Source of the DNA: Minisyncoccota bacterium | Lineage (GTDB): Bacteria; Patescibacteriota; Minisyncoccia; Phycocordibacterales; UBA9973 | DNA: 41,801 bases | Direction: 5' to 3' | NCBI GenBank assembly: GCA_016649835.1 | Contig: JAENWX010000002.1 | Location: forward strand, 1-41,801 | Shown: positions 3,371-41,801 of the stretch, piece after piece | How the letters are laid out: every line of letters begins with the position of its first letter | Position numbering within the stretch: position 1 is the first letter of the stretch | Made by a program: the position numbers and the translations under genes | Notes under the pieces: generated by a model | Seen by the model: the letters and a program-made list of their open reading frames with translations, nothing else | What the model was told of the DNA's origin: nothing | Database searches by the model: none

Positions 3371-3420
3371 TATCTTAGTCCAAAAAAGACAGATATTGTG
3401 TTATGATAAAAAAATATGAG

Positions 3421-3539
3421 TCCCGTTAGAGATGTGCATGTTATCTTTCTAACAGGAGTTTAAGATTTTGGTGAAGTATATATTATTAACAATAATTAAT
3501 CAGACACGTCCCACTTTTGGGGGACTATCTCTAATGGGA
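3421..3539 (+). repeat. Family A cassette copy 1 (inverted-repeat-bounded promoter/leader-like element ending on the A of the PBP start codon)
   Basis: TCCCGTTAGAGAT...ATCTCTAATGGGA; internal hairpin GTCCC/GGGAC at 3508-3525; aligns along its length with the copies at 6303, 22719, 36581 and 41683. Confidence 0.9.
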
Positions 3540-6039: not shown

Positions 6040-6303
6040 CTATTTGATATCAAAAAAATGAATATTAGGGAAAAGAGATTCTAATTTATTTAGAATCTCT
6101 TTTTTGTGCATCAAAATTTCACTTCTAAGCATTGGGGATCCTTTTACATAAATACATCCTCCTTTTATTTTTAGTGAATCATTTTCAATAGGATGAGATA
6201 TCTCTTCTGAAATGGTTTTAATAACCAAATCTCTTAATTCTTCTTTTTCATAAATTATTTTTTTAAATTTATCTAAGAAATTTTTTATATGATTATAATC
6301 CAT
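6040..6303 (-). CDS. Small DUF721/DciA-like protein
   Basis: 87 aa; lies downstream of dnaN as in many bacteria; pattern LKIKGGCIYVKGSPMLRSEI resembles DUF721. Confidence 0.55.
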   Translation of the reverse strand: MDYNHIKNFLDKFKKIIYEKEELRDLVIKTISEEISHPIENDSLKIKGGCIYVKGSPMLRSEILMHKKEILNKLESLFPNIHFFDIK

Positions 6304-6421
6304 CCCATTAGAGATAGGAAGTTATTAAACTTCCATGTCTTATTATTTATTGTTAATAATATGCACTTTATCAAAATTTTAAACTCCTGTTAGCAAGATA
6401 ACATACACATCTCTAACGGGA
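6303..6421 (-). repeat. Family A cassette copy 2
   Basis: Gene-sense TCCCGTTAGAGATGTGTATG...CTATCTCTAATGGGA+TG; hairpin GGAAGTT/AACTTCC at 6317-6334; TTGATA (6369-6374), 17 nt, AATAAA (6346-6351). Confidence 0.9.
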
Positions 6422-6435
6422 CAGGTTTTTTTATA

Positions 6436-6477
6436 AATTAGTAATTATTAATTAGTAATTAGTAATTAGTAATTATT
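6436..6477 (-). repeat. Heptamer array (six units AATTAGT/AATTATT on the + strand, ACTAATT in gene sense) abutting the dnaN stop
   Basis: Read directly; ends one base from the dnaN stop codon (6479-6481). Confidence 0.75.
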
Positions 6478-6478
6478 T

Positions 6479-7576
6479 CTACCTATTCATTGGCATAACT
6501 AAATACATAAAAGACGAGTCGCCTATTCCTCTTATTGTCATTGGTTTATTGTTTCCATTTAATTCTATATCTAAACTATCTCCACTAATAGATTGAAAAC
6601 AATCCAATATATATTTGTAATTAAAATTAGCAGATACATCTTCTCCAGAAAGGGCACCTGAGATAATTGTTGTATTTTCTCCTACATCTGCGTTGTTTGA
6701 TTTTATTTCAAAAATTTTATCATGTGGTTTAACAGTTAAAACAATTTGATTAAATTTATCTGAAAATATGTTTGAAATTTTTAAAGAAGAAATAAAATCT
6801 TGTTTTAAAACAACTGTTTTAGTTGTTGGATTTTTAGGAATAATTTGTTTATAGTCAGGAAAACTTCCATCAACAACCCTAGATGTTAGATAAATATTTT
6901 CAATAGAAAAAGATATTTGATTTTTTTGCAGAGTAATTTTTAAATCGTCTTCTATTCCATCAAATACTTTAATTATTTCAACTACGTTTTTAAATGGTAT
7001 TAATATGCCTTCAAATGATAATTTTTGTTTTATTTTTATTTTCTTTTCTGCTAGTCGAAATGAGTCTGTAGACACAAAAACTAACATGTCATCCTCTGGA
7101 TATATATAAACACTTCCTATTTCTGGTTTAATTTCTGAAATAGAAGCACTATAATAAACGGATTTAATACCATCTATAAATTTACTATTGGATATATTGA
7201 AACTTTCTCCTTCAACCATAGGTATTGTTGGAAAATCTTCGTGTGAGATACTTTTTAATAAAATTGTACTTGTATTTGTTTTAACAGATAGGTTTCCATT
7301 TATTAATTCAAATTTAACCATTAAATCACCTTGTAATATAGAAAATAAAGAAGATAAAATATCTCCACGAACAGCAACAGTACCTTCGGCTTCTATTTTT
7401 GCTGGTATTTCTATTTCTATTCCTATATTTAGATTTGTAGCTCTAAGTTTTAATGTTTTACCAGAGGCAACCCATAAAACTGAACCTAGCACAGGAAGTG
7501 TTAAATTTTTACCAGTAATTCTTTCTACTGAAACAAGTGCCTTTTTTATTTTATCTATTGAACATTCTATTTTCAT
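6479..7576 (-). CDS. dnaN: DNA polymerase III beta sliding clamp
   Basis: 365 aa; three-domain clamp-like sequence; C-terminal YLVMPMNR; immediately downstream of dnaA. Confidence 0.93.
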   Translation of the reverse strand: MKIECSIDKIKKALVSVERITGKNLTLPVLGSVLWVASGKTLKLRATNLNIGIEIEIPAKIEAEGTVAVRGDILSSLFSILQGDLMVKFELINGNLSVKTNTSTILLKSISHEDFPTIPMVEGESFNISNSKFIDGIKSVYYSASISEIKPEIGSVYIYPEDDMLVFVSTDSFRLAEKKIKIKQKLSFEGILIPFKNVVEIIKVFDGIEDDLKITLQKNQISFSIENIYLTSRVVDGSFPDYKQIIPKNPTTKTVVLKQDFISSLKISNIFSDKFNQIVLTVKPHDKIFEIKSNNADVGENTTIISGALSGEDVSANFNYKYILDCFQSISGDSLDIELNGNNKPMTIRGIGDSSFMYLVMPMNR

Positions 7577-9826: not shown

Positions 9827-10033
9827 GTGAAAAAAGTAATAATTTGGCTTATAAATATTTACCAAAAAACACCATTAAGGTCCCATTCCTCGTGTGTTTT
9901 TTTGCCAACTTGTTCTGAATACACCAAACAGTCTGTATTTAAATATGGAGCCCTGAGAGGCACTTTACGAGGCATTAAAAGGATTTTACGTTGTCACCCT
10001 TGGCAAAAAAACCACTATGATCCGGTAATATAA
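9827..10033 (+). CDS. yidD: Membrane protein insertion efficiency factor YidD
   Basis: LINIYQ..., CVFLPTCSEY, RCHPW motifs; GTG start. Confidence 0.88.
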   Translation: MKKVIIWLINIYQKTPLRSHSSCVFLPTCSEYTKQSVFKYGALRGTLRGIKRILRCHPWQKNHYDPVI

Positions 10034-10065
10034 TTACCAATTACTAATTAATGATTACTAATTGA
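10031..10065 (+). repeat. Heptamer array TAATTAC CAATTAC TAATTAA TGATTAC TAATTGA starting with the yidD stop codon
   Basis: Read directly; the first TAA is the stop codon. Confidence 0.75.
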
Positions 10066-11386: not shown

Positions 11387-11415
11387 TTAACCCAGAGGGT
11401 GATTCTGTTGAATCA
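11387..11415 (+). repeat. Family C 3' hairpin motif
   Basis: TTAACCCAGAGGGTGATTCTGTTGAATCA, 8 nt after the jag stop. Confidence 0.75.
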
Positions 11416-11427
11416 TAATTACTAATT

Positions 11428-11458
11428 AAAAACACCTAGGCATCGCCTAGGTGTTTTT
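11428..11458. terminator. Bidirectional intrinsic terminator
   Basis: AAAA-ACACCTAGG-CATCG-CCTAGGTGT-TTTT between convergent genes. Confidence 0.85.
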
Positions 11459-11468
11459 AATTGTATTT

Positions 11469-11503
11469 AATTAGTCATTAGTAATTGGTAATAAGTAATT
11501 ATT
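11469..11503 (-). repeat. Heptamer array (AATTAGT CATTAGT AATTGGT AATAAGT AATTATT) overlapping the stop of the 11499 gene
   Basis: Read directly. Confidence 0.7.
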
Positions 11504-15290: not shown

Positions 15291-15333
15291 TCCTTATATT
15301 ATATAATAATCTTGTAAACCAAACAACCCGTAA

Positions 15334-15368
15334 TAATTACTAATTACTAATTAATAATTAATAATTAC
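15334..15368. repeat. Heptamer array TAATTAC TAATTAC TAATTAA TAATTAA TAATTAC
   Basis: Read directly; lies between the VirB4-like stop and the next gene start. Confidence 0.7.
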
Positions 15369-17936: not shown

Positions 17937-17971
17937 AATTACAAATTACTGATTACTAATTACTAATTTAA
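17937..17971. repeat. Heptamer array AATTACA AATTACT GATTACT AATTACT AATTTAA
   Basis: Read directly. Confidence 0.7.
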
Positions 17972-18534: not shown

Positions 18535-18558
18535 ATGATAATAATTACTAATTAACAA

Positions 18559-19023: not shown

Positions 19024-19056
19024 TTATTAATCAGTAATTGGTAATTAGTAATTGCC
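19022..19056 (-). repeat. Heptamer array AATTATT AATCAGT AATTGGT AATTAGT AATTGCC
   Basis: Read directly; fills the gap between the 19058 stop and the 19023 start. Confidence 0.7.
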
Positions 19057-19057
19057 T

Positions 19058-20164
19058 CTAGAACGCTTCTCGATACGGGTCGTTTGATTTAGCTGGAGCT
19101 TCGTGGACTTCTTTTGAAGGGTCAGATATTTTTGGAATAGAATAATCTGTAACAACATGGTCACTCATGGTTACACTTTTAAGTTTTTCATCCATAATGT
19201 TTAAAGGAGCACTTTTTATTTCAGGAGAAATTACAGAAGGTTTTGCTTCCCAAACATCTTTTAACTCATCTTTTTCTATTATATCATTAATTTTTTTAGA
19301 CTCTTCTTGTTTTTCCGATGGAGTTTTTTCATTACTAATTTCTAATCCAACTGCCGGAGAGATAGATTCCTCTTTTTTAATAGTTTCTTCATTAGTAATT
19401 ACTTTTTCATAAGGAGGAACTGGAACTTTTTCTATTTCTATTTCATTATTAATTAGTAATTTGTCATTAGTAATTATTTTACCATAAGGAGGAAGAGGAA
19501 CATCTTCTTGTCCTTCATTTACTCTCATTAATTCTCTTATTTTTAATAAAATAGTATCATTAACATCTTTTATTAGGCTGGAAATATCTTCTCTTGGAAT
19601 TGTAATTTTAGAGATAACCTCACTTTCATATTTACTTGGGTGTGTTTCGTTTTTCATTACTTTAACAGTAATGTCTTCTAAAATCCCCATTTGTTCAATA
19701 TTTAGATTGTAGTCTTTGGATATTTTGTATAGTTTTTCTTTCCAATCAGACCTAGCAACAGCCTCCTGTGTTTCTTTTGGCATACCAATAAAACGAGGGT
19801 CTAAGACCAGGGGTTTGTTTTCAAAAACAGCCTTAGGCGACCTATTTATTTTTTTCTCTAAACCCTCTTGTATTTTTTTAAATATTTTATCATCTAAATC
19901 TTTTAATAAAATAAAAACTCCTTCGTCGTTTAACATTAGTTTTTGTTTTAAGCTTTTTTCATATTCATCTGGAAGTAAAATTCCAGACAATAATAATTCT
20001 GTTTCAGTCACAAGGTCTTCTAGTTGTTCCTCTGTATATTGATCCTTCATTCCTCGGATAATTAACTTCCAGTTAACATCATCAATAGCCTCTCTGCTTT
20101 CTTTTGGAAGTAGGTCTCTAGCCTCGTTAATCTTTATTTGTAGTAAATCTATAGAATTATCCAT
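19058..20164 (-). CDS. Acidic hypothetical protein with duplicated N-terminal module and VP(L/V)PPY(G/E)K(I/V)ITN repeats
   Basis: 368 aa, no TM; internal similarity between about aa 20-105 and 130-215; tandem VPLPPYGKIITND / VPVPPYEKVITNE. Confidence 0.55.
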   Translation of the reverse strand: MDNSIDLLQIKINEARDLLPKESREAIDDVNWKLIIRGMKDQYTEEQLEDLVTETELLLSGILLPDEYEKSLKQKLMLNDEGVFILLKDLDDKIFKKIQEGLEKKINRSPKAVFENKPLVLDPRFIGMPKETQEAVARSDWKEKLYKISKDYNLNIEQMGILEDITVKVMKNETHPSKYESEVISKITIPREDISSLIKDVNDTILLKIRELMRVNEGQEDVPLPPYGKIITNDKLLINNEIEIEKVPVPPYEKVITNEETIKKEESISPAVGLEISNEKTPSEKQEESKKINDIIEKDELKDVWEAKPSVISPEIKSAPLNIMDEKLKSVTMSDHVVTDYSIPKISDPSKEVHEAPAKSNDPYREAF

Positions 20165-22719: not shown

Positions 22720-22832
22720 CCCGTTAGAGATAGTCCCTCAAAGATGGGACGTGTTTGTTTTTGTTAATAATATCTACTTTATCAAAACTTGAAACTCCTG
22801 CTAGAAAGATAACATGCACATCTCTAATGGGA
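22719..22832 (-). repeat. Family A cassette copy 3
   Basis: Gene-sense TCCCATTAGAGATGTGCATG...CTATCTCTAACGGGA+TG; hairpin GTCCC/GGGAC at 22733-22750. Confidence 0.9.
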
Positions 22833-22836
22833 TTCA

Positions 22837-22858
22837 TCCCGTTAGAATCAGGCCATAG
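22837..22858 (-). repeat. Orphan family A terminus (TCCCGTTAGAATCAGGCC...) separated from copy 3 by TTCA
   Basis: Matches the ATG-proximal terminus of the variant copy at 36459; I found no partner terminus. Confidence 0.6.
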
Positions 22859-22896: not shown

Positions 22897-23033
22897 TTTA
22901 CTTTTAAACCTCGTTTACGTTATCTTTTTTTATAACAAAGCTCTTTTATTATAACAAATTTTCTATAAAACCTTCATTTTTAAAACTTTTTTCTTAACCT
23001 GCCTGCTGGTTATTAATAAGTAATTAGTAATTG

Positions 23034-23077: not shown

Positions 23078-25543
23078 TTACCAAATATTAAGGATTTTTT
23101 CGTATTCCTTTATATTTGTTATATGGGTCCAAGTACAGCCAGTATTATTAAGATCTGAACCATAAGTTTCACAACTAACTTGTGTTTTTTGAGCAGGACA
23201 ATCGGTCTTGTATGTTCCTGAGCCAAAAATACTAATAGCAGCAGTATGTTCACCGTCACCAGTACATGTGCTGATACCTGTTTTAACATCATTCTCAATA
23301 TAAGAACCTCTATCCTCATATTTATACCAAGGGTTACCAAATCTTAATGTTGGTCCTGTATACCCAGGGTTTTTAGCACCTGTTTTTGTAACAGTTTGCG
23401 CATAGCATTGGTTTGTAAGGTCGTCTACCGCCCCAATAAAAGTTTTATAGGTTTCAATTTCTCTATAGGCTAAGGTTATATCAGCTTCTGTTTTAAGAGT
23501 TGGTGCTATGATATAAAATTTACGTAGAAGCTCTGCAAGTTTTGCTTGTTCTACTTCATTGAAAGTTAGAGGATTTTGCTCTATATATAAACATTTGTTT
23601 TCTTCATAAACTACTGGAGTTATAGGAAAGCTTAATTCAGAATAATGATTTGGCACATAGGCTTTGTTTAAATCACCGTCCATATGACATTCTGGGTCAA
23701 AGTTATCTATTTTACCATCATTATCATTGTCAAAAGCATCGTTACATTGATACAGGGTTACGGGAGAAGTAGACTCAGAGTCGTGGTCGGGTACATACTC
23801 ATTATTTATGTTTCCATCATAGTGACAGTTTGGATCTAGTTCATCTATTTTACCATCAGTGTCGTTGTCTTTAGAGTCAGAACATTGTTTTTGTCCATCA
23901 GGTGGATTAATAGAATCTTTTACTGTAAATGTTGTCCATGCTCCGCAGTTATTATTTTCATTAATTTCAGTTATTGTACCAGCATCTCCTCCTGTTTTTT
24001 TATCAGCACAAGCTCTTATATAATACGTACCAGACTTTGTAAAAGTATGAGTTGCCTTTGCGGTGCTACTAGTTCCTGGAGATAATGCTAGTGTGTCAAC
24101 TACTAATTCGATATTATTTGCAGCGTCTGTTTGAGCTTCATCTGGACTGGTTTCTGTAATTGTAAAAAAACTAGAAAAACCAGAAACAGTTGAACCTTCA
24201 CCATCATTTCGGATTAAAGAGTTAAGTATTGTGGCTGTGTCTATAAGAGTGCTTGAAGGAGTAACAAATCCAGCTACTAAATCTGGCTCACCACTAGTAA
24301 TAATAATTGATTCAGAAAAATGATTTGCTATATAAGCTTTATTTAAATCTCCCCCTATGTGGCAAGCAGAATCTTGTTCGTCAGTAGTTGTATCTCCGTC
24401 GTTGTCTATGCCGTCACTACACTCTGGACTTATTCCAATATTTCCAACTCTGACAAAAACATTACCACTACCAAATCCTATATTACCAAGACAAGTAACT
24501 GCATATGATTTACTAAGAGTAAGGGTTCCAGTGTTAAAGGAGCCACTTGTTTCTGTGCTGTTTCCTGCTCCAGCATTACATGAAGTTGTGTTTACTGAAG
24601 TCCAACTAACAGTAGAAGATGCCCCAGATGCGATAGATGAAGGACTAGCTGTAACAGTAACAGAGGGGAAAAGGTTGGTGCCTCCCCTGACAACAACATA
24701 AGCATTGTCGCTACTTGAACCGTTCTCTCCTGTACAAATAATGGTATATGAGCTGCTATCTGTAAGTGCGCCTGTTTCAAATGAACCAGTTGTGCCTATC
24801 TCTACGCCGTCACCTTTATTACATGATGTTGTATTTTCTGAAGACCAACTAATAGTAGAAAATTCTCCAGGTCCTATTAAAGAAGGACTAGCTGTAACAG
24901 TAACTGAAGGGAAAAGATTTATTCCACTAGTACAATCTGGAGGGTTTGTTGCTCCGTTTAGGCAAGAGCCACTTGGGAGAGTCCATGTATTGGTAATAGG
25001 ATCAAAAAACCAACCCTCTCCTGGAGGAGGAGTCCAAGTGTTAGTAGTAGAGTCAAAAACCCAACCCTCTCCTGAAGGAGGAGTCCAAGTGTTGGTAATA
25101 GGATCAAAAATCCATCCTTCTCCTGGGGATTGTGGGGTTGTTTTAATATTGAAAACATCATTTATAAAACCAGAAAATGAATCCCAAAAAGTATTTGTTC
25201 CTCCGTCGTTAATCATAAATTCTCCAAGTTCACCGCTTTGTATGTCTTGATTGGCAAAACCAAAGTCGGCACTATCTGATTTCCTATAAATAGGATTGCC
25301 ATTCGCGTCTGTGCCAGAAAAGACTACTCCATCCCCTTTTTTCAAATCCCCGTCAGATAAACCTACTGTTAATTTTGCATTACTTGATGGAGTTAATGGA
25401 CTAAAAAGTTTAGCAATGCTTGTTGAAGTTTTAACACCAAAAGAATCTCTATTTTTATAGATTAAATAGCCGGCTATTATAAGTAAAACAACAACAATTA
25501 ATGTTATTATTAGCGCTTTACTTTTTTTAGGTTTATTTTCCAT
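23078..25543 (-). CDS. Giant membrane-anchored surface protein (adhesin-like)
   Basis: N-terminal TM. 3x GEGW(I/V/F)FD..TNTWTPP repeats (24971-25129). 2x ~78-aa Ig-like repeats NLFPSVTVTASPS... (24446-24922). CARDB-like domain ending ITEINENNN. 3x C-x-D-x-x-D-N-D-x-D-G...D-P-x-C-H...Y(V/I)xxH modules. Confidence 0.7.
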   Translation of the reverse strand: MENKPKKSKALIITLIVVVLLIIAGYLIYKNRDSFGVKTSTSIAKLFSPLTPSSNAKLTVGLSDGDLKKGDGVVFSGTDANGNPIYRKSDSADFGFANQDIQSGELGEFMINDGGTNTFWDSFSGFINDVFNIKTTPQSPGEGWIFDPITNTWTPPSGEGWVFDSTTNTWTPPPGEGWFFDPITNTWTLPSGSCLNGATNPPDCTSGINLFPSVTVTASPSLIGPGEFSTISWSSENTTSCNKGDGVEIGTTGSFETGALTDSSSYTIICTGENGSSSDNAYVVVRGGTNLFPSVTVTASPSSIASGASSTVSWTSVNTTSCNAGAGNSTETSGSFNTGTLTLSKSYAVTCLGNIGFGSGNVFVRVGNIGISPECSDGIDNDGDTTTDEQDSACHIGGDLNKAYIANHFSESIIITSGEPDLVAGFVTPSSTLIDTATILNSLIRNDGEGSTVSGFSSFFTITETSPDEAQTDAANNIELVVDTLALSPGTSSTAKATHTFTKSGTYYIRACADKKTGGDAGTITEINENNNCGAWTTFTVKDSINPPDGQKQCSDSKDNDTDGKIDELDPNCHYDGNINNEYVPDHDSESTSPVTLYQCNDAFDNDNDGKIDNFDPECHMDGDLNKAYVPNHYSELSFPITPVVYEENKCLYIEQNPLTFNEVEQAKLAELLRKFYIIAPTLKTEADITLAYREIETYKTFIGAVDDLTNQCYAQTVTKTGAKNPGYTGPTLRFGNPWYKYEDRGSYIENDVKTGISTCTGDGEHTAAISIFGSGTYKTDCPAQKTQVSCETYGSDLNNTGCTWTHITNIKEYEKILNIW

Positions 25544-34301: not shown

Positions 34302-34302
34302 A

Positions 34303-34337
34303 TAATTACTAATTACCAATTAATAATTACTAATTTA
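34303..34337 (+). repeat. Heptamer array TAATTAC TAATTAC CAATTAA TAATTAC TAATTTA directly after the stop codon
   Basis: Read directly. Confidence 0.75.
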
Positions 34338-34445: not shown

Positions 34446-34480
34446 GTAATTTAATTAGTAATTGGTAATCAGTAATTATT
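34446..34480 (-). repeat. Heptamer array (AATTAGT AATTGGT AATCAGT AATTATT) overlapping the comM stop
   Basis: Read directly. Confidence 0.7.
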
Positions 34481-36050
34481 AATTCATCTCCCTCGGTCTA
34501 TATTGCAGCGCCTCCAATATGTGATTTGAGGAAATATTTTCAATACCTTCTAAGTCGCAAATAGTTCTAGCTAGCTTAATAGTACGATGATATGCACGAG
34601 CAGAAAGCTGTAATCTCTCCGCACTCGTATTTAATAATTTTTTTGTTTCATCACTAAGTGGCGCATAAATATTTAATTCTTTCACATTTATTTCACTGTT
34701 GGTATTTATTTTTCTTGTAGAATTTTTAAATCTTTTTGTTTGAATTTCTCGAGCATTTTTTACTCGTGTTTTTATATTGATTGTTTTATCTCCTTCTTGT
34801 GTATCATCTGATAATTTTTCATAATCAACATTTCCAACTGTAACCCAAATATCAATACGGTCCATTATGGGTCCAGATAATTTTCTTTTATATCTATCTA
34901 GGTCACTTGGTTTACAAATGCATTGTTTTTGTTTGTTACCTTTATTTCCACAAGGGCATGGATTCATTGCTGCTACTAAAATAAAATTTGATGGAAAAAT
35001 AGCGGAACCTTTTGCTCTTGATATTGAAATTATATTATCTTCAAGAGGTTGTCTTAGTGATTCTAAAACTCGTTTTTCAAATTCTGGAAATTCATCTAAA
35101 AATAGTACACCCTTGTGAGCAAGTGTAACTTCTCCTGGTTTTGGGTTTACTCCACCACCTATCATAGAGACATAACTTGCTGTATGGTGTGGCGCACGAA
35201 AAGGAGATTCTGTTATTAGTGCATCGTCTAGTAGCCCCACAACAGAGTGAATACCTGTAATTTCTAAACAATCATCCTTGCTTAAGTTTGGAAGTATTTG
35301 AGAAAACACTCGAGCAAGCATTGTTTTACCTGTGCCAGGAGGGCCAGACATAGCTATGTTGTGCCCACCTGCAGCAGCTATTTCAAGCCCACGCTTAGCA
35401 CCTTCTCGACCTTTGATATCAGAAAAATCAATACCACCAGTTTTTTCTTCATGGCTAATTTCAGTAGTTGGAACTGGTGTTAGCTTCGGTCTTTCTTTTT
35501 CTAGTGGTTTATTGTTTTTATCTTTCTTTATAATATAAATATGGTCTATTACTTCTTTCAAATTTTTTACACCATAAACTTTTATATCTTCTACTAGCGC
35601 CGCCTCTTTTGCGTTTTCAAATGGTAAATATATTTCTTTATAGCCAAGTTTCTTTGCCATTTCGGTTAGAGGTAGAGCGCCTTTAATAGGACGAAGCTCT
35701 CCGTTGAGAGACAGTTCTCCTAGAAAAATTCTACCATCTGGATTAAAATTTATTTCTTCTGCTGAAAGTAGATACGCAAGTGCGATGGCTAAGTCAAAAT
35801 ACGGACCCTCTTTTTTTATATCTGCAGGAGAAAGAGATATTACTATTTTTTGGTTTTGATTTTTAGGTGATTTAAATCCAGAATTTTTTAAAGCAGAACT
35901 CATTCGGTCTTTTGATTCGCCCACAGCTTTATCCGGGAGTCCAACCAGGGTAAAAGAATGCAAAGTTTTCTTTGTGATGTCTACTTCGACTGCAACGACC
36001 TTACCTTTAAGTAAATGAGTTTGAGCTGAATAAATTCTTGAGAATGACAT
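34479..36050 (-). CDS. comM: YifB/ComM-family Mg-chelatase-like AAA+ ATPase
   Basis: Lon-like N-domain, GPPGTGKTM, VLFLDEFPEF, CPCG zinc motif. Confidence 0.9.
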   Translation of the reverse strand: MSFSRIYSAQTHLLKGKVVAVEVDITKKTLHSFTLVGLPDKAVGESKDRMSSALKNSGFKSPKNQNQKIVISLSPADIKKEGPYFDLAIALAYLLSAEEINFNPDGRIFLGELSLNGELRPIKGALPLTEMAKKLGYKEIYLPFENAKEAALVEDIKVYGVKNLKEVIDHIYIIKKDKNNKPLEKERPKLTPVPTTEISHEEKTGGIDFSDIKGREGAKRGLEIAAAGGHNIAMSGPPGTGKTMLARVFSQILPNLSKDDCLEITGIHSVVGLLDDALITESPFRAPHHTASYVSMIGGGVNPKPGEVTLAHKGVLFLDEFPEFEKRVLESLRQPLEDNIISISRAKGSAIFPSNFILVAAMNPCPCGNKGNKQKQCICKPSDLDRYKRKLSGPIMDRIDIWVTVGNVDYEKLSDDTQEGDKTINIKTRVKNAREIQTKRFKNSTRKINTNSEINVKELNIYAPLSDETKKLLNTSAERLQLSARAYHRTIKLARTICDLEGIENISSNHILEALQYRPREMN

Positions 36051-36096: not shown

Positions 36097-36459
36097 TTAA
36101 AAAATCTTTTCCATACAGTCTTTACAAGTAAGTGCTGCTGGGTTAGCTTCTAATCTATCTTCTTCAATTTTTTTGTTACACTTTTCACAAATTCCATAAC
36201 CTTCCCCGTCTATTTTTACTAAGGCTTTGTTGATGTCGCCTAGTCTTGTTTCTAGTGAATTTAATTTAATAGAACGTTCTTCGTAGTCAGCATTTCTTTC
36301 TGCCATATCAGCTTCATCTTGAACTTCTTGAGTATTCATTTCAGACTCTGGGACTGCTTCCCAATCACCTGTTTCGTCTACTTTACCAAGAGAACCCAAC
36401 TCCTCTTTTAGTAGTTTTTTTTCTTCTTCTAATTTTGTTTTATAAAAATTTAAATTCAT
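36097..36459 (-). CDS. DksA/TraR-family C4 zinc-finger protein
   Basis: Coiled-coil N-terminal part plus CEKCNKKIEEDRLEANPAALTCKDC. Confidence 0.8.
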   Translation of the reverse strand: MNLNFYKTKLEEEKKLLKEELGSLGKVDETGDWEAVPESEMNTQEVQDEADMAERNADYEERSIKLNSLETRLGDINKALVKIDGEGYGICEKCNKKIEEDRLEANPAALTCKDCMEKIF

Positions 36460-36576
36460 CCCGTTAGAAGCAGGTCGCGGTCAGTTTAAAACTAACTTTA
36501 ATCTACTTATGTTAAATTAATTAATATTTTTCTTTTATATTCCCATTATTTACTGCGACCGCGGCTTCTAACGGGA
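36459..36576 (-). repeat. Family A variant copy (same termini, unrelated interior)
   Basis: Gene-sense TCCCGTTAGAAGCCGCGGTCGCAG...CTGACCGCGACCTGCTTCTAACGGGA+TG; AT-rich interior has no similarity to canonical copies. Confidence 0.8.
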
Positions 36577-36580
36577 TTCA

Positions 36581-36699
36581 TCCCGTTAGAGATAGTTCCC
36601 CAAAGGTGGAACGTATCTTATTAATTATTGTTAATAATATCTACTTTATTAAAACTTTAAATTCCTGTTAGAAAAATAACATACATATCTCTAACGGGA
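36581..36699 (-). repeat. Family A cassette copy (canonical; second unit of the tandem array)
   Basis: Aligns over its full length with the other canonical copies; hairpin GTTCC/GGAAC at 36595-36612; flanked on both sides by TTCA (gene-sense TGAA). Confidence 0.9.
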
Positions 36700-36703
36700 T
36701 TCA

Positions 36704-36760
36704 TTTGGTTATAGATAGTCCGTATTTACACGGAACAAATCTGATTATTTTTAATGCAAT
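36704..36760 (-). repeat. Degenerate partial family A copy (ATG-proximal half only)
   Basis: TTTGGTTATAGATAG-TCCGTATTTACACGGAAC-AAATCTGATTATTTTTAAT aligns with TCCCGTTAGAGATAG-hairpin-GTATCTTATTAATTATTGTTAAT. Confidence 0.6.
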
Positions 36761-41683: not shown

Positions 41684-41801
41684 CCCGTTAGAGATAGGAA
41701 GTTATTAAACTTCCGTATCTAATTAATTTTAGTTAATAATATCTACTTTATCAAAATCTTAAACTCCTGTTAGCAAGATAACATACACATCTCTAACGGG
41801 A
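41683..41801 (-). repeat. Family A cassette copy (distal end coincides with the window edge)
   Basis: Nearly identical to copy 2, including hairpin GGAAGTT/AACTTCC (41697-41714); TTGATA-17 nt-TAAAAT. Confidence 0.9.

Follow-up and report, generated by a model that had tools for sequence, protein, structure and literature searches.

The unit at 6303-6421 and its family

Within a 41.8-kb (41,801-nt) stretch of DNA from a Minisyncoccota bacterium, referred to here as the window and providing the numbering for all coordinates, a 119-nt unit reading TCCCG...TGGGA occupies positions 6303-6421 of the minus strand, between dnaN and an open reading frame (ORF) of 87 aa (6040-6303). The unit is designated copy C2, type 1, of a family of elements whose 13-nt terminal inverted repeats read TCCCGTTAGAGAT...ATCTCTAACGGGA. 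Followed along the minus strand from 6421 to 6301, its order is TCCCGTTAGAGAT-GTGTATGTT-ATCTTGCTAACAGGA-...TTGATA-17 nt-AATAAA...-GGAAGTT-TAAT-AACTTCC-T-ATCTCTAATGGGA-TG. The 5' repeat TCCCGTTAGAGAT (6409-6421) includes the 9-mer GTTAGAGAT, termed box1 (6409-6417), and 9 nt after box1 stands box2, ATCTTGCTAACAGGA (6385-6399), a degenerate internal third copy of the repeat. A promoter-like pair, TTGATA (6369-6374) and AATAAA (6346-6351) at a spacing of 17 nt, spans 6346-6374 and is a consensus match at chance level. The subterminal hairpin GGAAGTT-TAAT-AACTTCC (6317-6334), variable in sequence between copies, lies one base ahead of the 3' repeat ATCTCTAATGGGA, or box3 (6303-6315). C2 ends in an A that serves as the first base of the 87-aa ORF's ATG, and the start codon at 6301-6303 is completed by the TG that follows.

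The sequence-only reading had described a cassette of three 9-nt boxes, sigma70-like hexamers and a hairpin, and all of these were found at the coordinates it gave. Boxes 1 and 3, however, are really the 13-nt terminal inverted repeats, and box3, which was placed 3 nt before the ATG, supplies with its last base the A of that ATG. The window has 8 occurrences of the 9-mer GTTAGAGAT, 17 times the 0.47 expected, and none of 100 shuffles reached that count. The best reading of the region shifts from a promoter, operator or attenuator cassette to a family of elements that nest at start codons and are linked to a GIY-YIG nuclease. The flagged region is very probably a mobile element, and C2 is read as a 119-nt non-autonomous copy, similar to a MITE (miniature inverted-repeat transposable element), of a mobile family found across Patescibacteria, with a rough probability of 0.8.

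Direct duplications of at least 4 nt (TGNN) were present at the flanks of 63 of 87 oriented elements, compared with a mean of 27.3 and a maximum of 37 in 2000 shuffles. The duplicated NN varies yet matches between the two flanks (GA, AG, CG, TA, CAA), and in most copies the duplicated target leaves an ATGNN relic at the 5' flank. A metagenome set of 116 elements was selected solely by the 5' end, ATGAA followed by TCCCGTTAGAGAT. The 3' flank starts with TGAA in 98 of these elements and the junction reads ATG in 100, and at 87 of those 100 junctions the ATG begins a reading frame that either spans 60 codons or more or reaches the end of the contig.

Five relatives, with DnaN 78-92% identical and a shared synteny of rnpA-dnaA-dnaN-87aa-PBP1A-tyrS, were compared with the window. 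The site of C2 at the 87-aa gene is empty in all five, where the gene lies 1-71 nt behind dnaN; the corresponding gap in the window is 175 nt, element included. At the start of PBP1A three relatives have no element, and three genomes each have an element of a different type. The empty start reads ...tgtgatatgattatataatATGAGaaaacat in L125/L126 (also given as ...tatataatATGAGaaaacat), and it is empty in L127 and L128 too. In L124 the order is ATGAG, a type-2 element and TGAGaaaaaac, and in L121 it is ATGAG, an element with variant repeats (TCCCGTAGTAGAAAATGGCAT...) and TGAGaaaacat, each with a perfect TGAG duplication; in the window the site is filled by a type-1 copy. The host extended -10 (TGTGATATGAT) is kept upstream of the relic ATGAG in the filled sites. 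The same TGAG target was used each time (window 3416-3420; L121:13937-14139; L124:13989-14191; empty L125:13892-13961), and the PBP1A start is either an insertion hot spot or a place of element-by-element replacement. Presence/absence polymorphism at orthologous sites, target duplication (though not at C2 itself) and bounding terminal repeats, by which MITEs are recognized, were all found.

A scan with the 15-mer ATCTCTAAYGGGATG over one genome per GTDB species returned at least 120 loci, where about 2000 chance matches are expected in the collection. About two thirds of the loci listed are metagenome-assembled genomes (MAGs) of Patescibacteria, with lineages of the Paceibacteria type (Lloyd-, Ryan-, Wolfe-, Nomura-, Yanofsky-, Kaiser- and Liptonbacteria) and Saccharibacteria at G+C contents of 29-59%. 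Repeats are paired in about 90 of the at least 120 loci, and at least two ends are present in 92 of 121 sources (window included). Among the matches listed, with 80 record titles, a matching 5' repeat occurs only in MAGs labelled Patescibacteria or 'bacterium'. The units are 114-119 nt long in the window, and more than 100 further elements elsewhere are bounded by 13-nt repeats; the commonest element lengths are 115-123, 277-280 and about 50 nt. The architecture is constant and runs from ATGNN through TCCCGTTAGAGAT, a variable AT-rich interior, AC, a variable 7-bp hairpin and T to ATCTCTAACGGGA and TG. Interiors of elements from different genomes could not be aligned and hold no conserved core resembling a ligand pocket. 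A 51-nt mini element (TCCCGTTAGAAGCC...GCTTCTAACGGGA) was seen nested in the loop of another element's subterminal hairpin (L013:3307-3358). Viral contigs (IMG/VR) gave no match to the 5' end nor to the paired-repeat pattern, and the family is undescribed in the literature searched, whether by topic or by the strings CCCGTTAGAG, CTCTAACGGG and MNPVRD. The 94 proteins encoded downstream sort into 86 clusters, with pheT, topA, typA, frr, murG and the alpha subunit of ATP synthase represented, and the idea of a regulon was ruled out on this count.

The hairpin stems of the window differ yet stay paired (GTCCC/GGGAC, GGAAGTT/AACTTCC, GTTCC/GGAAC), from which the sequence-only reading had concluded that the hairpin is selected as a structure. 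MAFFT alignment of the hairpin tails proved structurally meaningless, and an anchored pairing test and a covariance-model alignment were used instead. In the former, in which the 7 nt before T-ATCTC are set against the segment 3-13 nt upstream, the element's own arm gives a perfect 7-bp stem in 32 of 68 cases, compared with 1.2% when the arm is foreign, and 23 distinct stems are represented. The covariance model was built from 12 seed sequences and run on 100 metagenome loci selected by the 5' end only, giving 112 matches. Across this independent alignment 95.1% of cells are paired, against 61.7% in shuffles and 37-58% in slid controls; all seven pairs changed on both sides, and compensatory cells number 142 versus 38. 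Covariation, and with it selection of the hairpin as a structure, is therefore supported in a larger set than the copies from which it was first proposed. Where stems are perfect but for a mismatch, G.T and A.C are seen equally often (5 vs 5, small numbers), so nothing favours selection on one RNA strand. On the plus strand, the hairpin and its T-rich stretch score as intrinsic-terminator-like at 6317-6344 and 36595-36622 (1 vs 0.0-0.1 in shuffles).

The nuclease-bearing form and competing explanations

The 277-280-nt form of the element has the same ends and carries an ORF of about 95 aa, a single-domain protein whose sole match is PF01541 (GIY-YIG) over residues 10-77 and whose nearest solved structures are the UPF0213 proteins 1zg2 and 1ywl; NCBIfam gave no family match. 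In most copies the reading frame can be followed without a break from the host ATG that the element has captured, with ATG-NN running into TCC CGT TAG AGA T to give M-x-P-V-R-D (MNPVRD), and the nuclease likely starts at this codon. Its N-terminus is encoded by the 5' repeat and its C-terminus, ...R-F-L-S-L-T-G-stop, by the 3' repeat, the TGA stop overlapping the host ATG (ATGA). The hairpin arms of ORF-bearing copies lie within the codons for G-K-R and R-F-L, with a loop of 21 nt. A protein search returned 2866 clusters, and among the best 120 of these 79 are exactly 95 aa long, 83 have M.PVRD, 93 end in RFLSLTG, and the only name is 'GIY-YIG nuclease family protein', from Paceibacterota or the Patescibacteria group. 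One relative has a nuclease ORF abutting the start of a TraG-like gene, and none is present at that place in the window. In 16 of 76 ORF-less elements the frame set by the relic ATG is uninterrupted across the interior, while the other two frames are open in 0 of 152 (L129-L248). Eight of these frames end in ...SLTG-stop, four end in ...SYL-stop and four run in frame into the host protein (...ISNGM...). The bias towards this frame would agree with recent in-frame deletions of the nuclease ORF, or else with selection that lets ribosomes reach the host AUG.

Box1 and box2 together make up a 37-nt mini inverted-repeat unit, box2 being a degenerate copy of the 3' repeat, and elements of 37-52 nt that are hardly more than two repeats exist elsewhere. 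Translated from a relic ATG, the segment from box1 through box2 reads MNPVRD-VHV-IFLTG-V-stop and mimics both ends of the nuclease. A box2-like CGGG about 29 nt from the 5' end is present in 22 of 66 elements and its complement CCCG in 4 of the 66, a recurrence that upholds the earlier view that box1 is able to pair with box2 or with box3. The 5' repeat takes part in 17 local helices of 5 bp or more, where about 6 would be expected, and together with the recurrence of CGGG these helices indicate that a hairpin at the 5' end is recurrent, not universal. Folded in silico, the full-length RNA favours the long-range box1:box3 stem of 13-15 bp, which includes the bases just before the AUG (minimum free energy -30.7 to -41.7 kcal/mol; z -2.5 to -7.1). 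The differences between box1 and box3 in the window, G.U in C1 and C2 and A.C in C3, are not compensatory. No Rfam family matched at gathering score across the window, and permissive scans of two cassette regions gave noise only, such as WsnRNA46 at 21.5 bits (gathering 65.3) and microRNA precursors.

The promoter that had been proposed between box2 and box3 is present as hexamers, at a frequency no better than in shuffles or on the antisense strand. Promoter-like sites in 6200-6520 number 1, against 2.4 +/- 1.3 in shuffles, and a second count gave 3 against 3.6 +/- 1.8. Of 132 oriented elements 39 have a sense site and 29 an antisense site, with 33.5 +/- 4.5 in shuffled interiors. Within the 45 nt 5' of the hairpin (64 anchored stems), only the AC just ahead of the stem is strongly conserved, the information content elsewhere being at most 0.34 bit, and no recognizable -10/-35 stands at a fixed distance. 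A family-wide sigma70 promoter was rejected, as neither enrichment, strand bias nor a fixed position was observed. No Shine-Dalgarno sequences were found ahead of the window ORFs, and many window genes have a TATAAT-like or other -10-like box within about 10 nt of the ATG, a pattern that suggests leaderless or very short-leader mRNAs. Given these two features, read-through from the kept host promoter is the simplest source of transcripts.

A mechanism can be proposed in which the GIY-YIG nuclease, probably the mobilizing enzyme, would act in trans on ORF-less copies and so mobilize both forms. Each end would be recognized as a repeat with its adjacent hairpin; that this happens on single-stranded DNA, by analogy with the Ssn/NTS system of Neisseria, is a conjecture that we place somewhat below even odds. 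Box2 would be a third repeat copy, now decayed, that provides the 5' end with a local hairpin of its own. Insertion would be tolerated because the ATG is regenerated from the element's A and the host's TG, and the host gene would be expressed by read-through from its kept promoter, to which a short upstream ORF (uORF) at the relic ATG, or an element-borne promoter in the subfamily of the window, may contribute. Taken together, and at only slightly less than even odds, the family may represent an undescribed class of prokaryotic transposon. Such an element would be mobilized by a lone 95-aa GIY-YIG nuclease with the start codon as its target, would take over the host ATG and leaderless-type promoter, would rebuild the host ATG over its own TGA and so be nearly harmless, and would have left ORF-less derivatives of about 120 nt at housekeeping start codons throughout the phylum.

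Several explanations compete with a mobile element, and the transcripts that read-through would provide bear on the first of them, an RNA-level switch in a transcribed 5' leader. Here box1:box2 pairing would free the start codon and box1:box3 pairing would bury it, controlling translation or termination, with the hairpin as an RNA element. The 13-15-bp stem that closes full-length folds, the box2-like partners in about one third of family members, the host promoter kept upstream of filled sites, which makes read-through likely, and the bias towards an open relic-ATG frame would all suit such a switch. The downstream genes, however, share no function through which a common signal is evident, the interiors are unalignable between genomes and show nothing like a ligand pocket, Rfam gave no family match, the hairpin has as many G.T as A.C mismatches, and the box1/box3 differences are not compensatory. 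Insertion polymorphism and target duplications require an origin at the DNA level in any case. An attenuator as previously suggested is physically possible on read-through transcripts, but it is not the primary explanation, nothing favours selection on RNA, and we regard the switch as improbable. Less remote, though still doubtful, is a mobile promoter, in which the element would bring an outward sigma70-type promoter (TTGATA-17-AATAAT) whose transcript would start just before the hairpin and have a leader of roughly 37 nt, shielded at its 5' end by a stem-loop. Hexamers with the 17-nt spacing recur in four of the five window copies, the geometry is suitable, with the -10 ending about 11 nt before the hairpin, and C2 separates dnaN from a gene that follows it closely in relatives; Correia elements in Neisseria offer a precedent. 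Set against this are matches no commoner than in shuffles, sense sites in 39 and antisense sites in 29 of 132 elements, a weak positional bias upstream of the hairpin, the departures in the window itself (TTGGTG in C1, TTAATA in C4 and no -10 in C3) and the host promoters retained upstream of filled sites. A promoter borne by the element in the window's subfamily is likewise possible and doubtful.

That the GTTAGAGAT boxes are operator half-sites of a DNA-binding regulator, bracketing a promoter and defining a regulon of cassette-bearing genes, would agree with the over-representation of the 9-mer in the window and with the placing of the boxes as inverted repeats near gene starts. The genes concerned are not related to one another and change from one close relative to the next, the boxes also supply the coding sequence for the termini of the nuclease ORF, and a box1-box3 spacing of about 93 nt is not operator-like. 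Because of the target duplications, the empty orthologous sites and the ORF-bearing form, the boxes are assigned as the terminal inverted repeats of an inserted element, and operators are considered very improbable. A domesticated repeat maintained by the host and not by transposition, as proposed for NTS/SsnA in Neisseria, where it would tag genes so that incoming single-stranded DNA is cut in the course of natural transformation, shares with the present family the NTS-ssnA-NTS architecture of a single-domain GIY-YIG gene, flanking hairpin repeats and many dispersed copies (PMC11893778). The repeats are also conserved across the phylum. The consensus of the Ssn-related motif matches none of 66 elements, however, and the precise placement at start codons, the TGNN duplication and the lineage-specific expansion (16 ends vs 0-4) resemble active insertion. 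Domestication is judged unlikely, and it may hold together with transposition, the two ideas not being mutually exclusive.

A number of points weigh against the mobile-element reading. C2 has no target duplication, its 5' flank being ACCTG, and about a quarter of all elements are without a 4-nt duplication. An internal Met, conserved in the nuclease at about residue 10, provides an alternative start, and the captured ATG is therefore not obligatory. The window contains no GIY-YIG ORF. The covariation alignment (A4) was fitted to the structure of its model, which favours pairing, and the extreme conservation of the repeats across the phylum could equally reflect a host function. The family is known here from sequence, from which its mobility and the activity of the nuclease are predicted. 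To our knowledge no transposon with a GIY-YIG enzyme only has been established in prokaryotes, and we know of no strand transfer by hydrolytic GIY-YIG enzymes. The junction of C2 (window 6422-6426) belongs to a class, ACYTG ahead of TCCCG, that has neither a target duplication nor a relic ATG and was also observed in the unrelated genomes L011, L013, L022, L029, L039 and L040.

If the mobile-element reading is correct, many gene starts of Patescibacteria carry a small selfish insert, at PBP1A in the window and at topA, pheT, typA and frr elsewhere, and a transposition system that relies on a single-domain GIY-YIG nuclease and targets the start codon would give the recently described Ssn-type nucleases a mobile-element context. 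For annotation, relic ATGs, uORFs and 95-aa ORFs are liable to be picked up by gene callers. How an AUG behind a 13-15-bp stem is used for translation without a Shine-Dalgarno sequence becomes a concrete, testable question, and the nuclease with the 13-nt repeat and hairpin is a candidate tool for sequence- and structure-specific DNA cleavage.

Other copies and neighbouring features of the window

The window holds five type-1 copies of about 119 nt, one type-2 element and two remnants, and the complete copies abut the ATGs of different genes (PBP1A, the 87-aa ORF, an 846-aa ORF, a DksA/TraR-like ORF and an NYN-domain ORF). C1 (3421-3539, plus strand; hairpin 3508-3525) is at the start codon of PBP1A, with the relic ATGAG (3416-3420) behind the kept host promoter. 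The remaining copies are on the minus strand. C3 (22719-22832, 114 nt; hairpin 22733-22750) is at the start of the 846-aa ORF with a relic ATGAA at 22833-22837, and directly 5' of it a solo 3' repeat, GATTCTAACGGGA (22837-22849), constitutes an element remnant. C4 (36581-36699; hairpin 36595-36612) stands in tandem with T2 (36459-36576), a type-2 element of 118 nt with the repeats TCCCGTTAGAAGC...GCTTCTAACGGGA that abuts the ATG of the DksA/TraR-like ORF (36097-36459), and a degenerate 3' end at about 36700-36736, with a hairpin GTTCCG...CGGAC and then TATCTATAACCAAATGAA, represents a third tandem element. C5 (41683-41801; hairpin 41697-41714) is at the start of the NYN-domain ORF, and its first base is the last of the window.

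Repeat ends number 16 in the window, compared with 0-4 per 21 kb in relatives. The subfamily of the window, TTAGAGATGTGNATGTTATCTT, had no match in a scan of JGI metagenomes, so the type-1 element with the box2 arrangement was seen only in this window. The density of ends and the absence of matches in that scan point to a recent, lineage-specific expansion. Exact look-ups of two window proteins returned no record.

Three further features of the window were recorded. Arrays of the heptamer AATTACT and its near variants lie mostly just past stop codons, with 67 matches to AATTACTAATTAC (at most 2 mismatches) against 5.1 expected. They are located at 1108-1146, 6434-6477, 10028-10058, 11415-11500, 15333-15368, 17937-17970, 18541-18555, 19027-19055, 19388-19475, 23013-23032, 34302-34337 and 34451-34484; similar arrays follow dnaN in relatives, and they could be terminator substitutes or protein-binding arrays. 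The minus-strand gene run at 11499-20164 matches the TraC-like, P-loop TraG, VanY or SLT and PG-binding cluster of L121, L124 and L125, with Pfam labels taken from the gene tables of the relatives, and resembles a type IV secretion locus of Patescibacteria. An 821-aa ORF with a CARDB domain (23078-25543) contains internal repeats, both tandem and dispersed, at 24575-24919 and 24979-25131, comprising three 51-nt units and a 102-nt pair.

Comparison with known systems

An integron attC cassette was considered and rejected. The elements lie 5' of genes, on both strands and scattered among core genes (dnaN, PBP1A, tyrS), target duplications are present with no adjacent integrase, and GTTAGAG merely resembles the core site GTTRRRY. 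Putative mobile promoters, as described by Matus-Garcia et al. in 2012, are reportedly single upstream sequences repeated before unrelated genes of a genome. The present family differs in having no above-chance promoter signal, and it is distinguished by defined ends, duplications and a coding form. Free-standing GIY-YIG homing endonuclease genes, such as seg of phage T4, are fitted tightly between host genes, stop and start codons frequently overlapping. Homing of this kind uses recombination to place a copy of the gene at the corresponding locus of a naive genome and involves enzymes with extra DNA-binding domains, whereas terminal inverted repeats, target duplication, spread to unrelated genes and ORF-less derivatives are not part of it.

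Correia elements (CREE/NEMIS) are bacterial MITEs of 100-150 bp with terminal inverted repeats, a short duplication and many gene-adjacent copies, and they are transcribed as long hairpins able to alter the expression of neighbouring genes. They duplicate TA and are not tied to start codons, and we know of no cognate protein-coding form; in the present family an ORF-bearing form exists, and the start codon is the target and is regenerated. The IS200/IS605 insertion sequences (IS) and REP/BIME-RAYT systems share with it a small nuclease gene, subterminal hairpins recognized by shape and abundant ORF-less hairpin repeats mobilized or maintained in trans (discussed in PMC11893778). Those systems use HUH/Y1 enzymes with covalent intermediates and insert 3' of a tetra- or pentanucleotide, without target duplication and without terminal inverted repeats. 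Correia-type MITEs and IS200/IS605-REP are functional analogues with other ends and other enzymes.

The closest known system is Ssn/NTS (Chenal et al. 2025, PMC11893778), in which SsnA single-stranded-DNA nucleases have Ssn-related motifs at their flanks. Its repeats are unrelated in sequence to those of the present family, the Ssn-related motif HGTCWYN(0-2)YYVSBRHN(0-5)WNVSBRGN(0-2)RNCYNB being found in 0 of 66 elements and at 0 window sites on both strands, and the 13-nt terminal inverted repeats described here encode the protein's own termini. The elements of the present family also sit exactly on start codons, with TGNN duplications, and the Ssn/NTS paper mentions neither Patescibacteria nor start-codon targeting (PMC11893778). 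In both systems, a single-domain GIY-YIG protein of about 94-95 aa (95 aa here, likened by size and domain) is encoded by a gene flanked on both sides by oriented, hairpin-containing repeats, and dispersed repeats lie mostly outside genes, at hundreds per genome in Neisseria, while in the present case seven copies were counted within the 42-kb window. The authors of the Ssn/NTS study themselves point to an IS-like architecture (PMC11893778).

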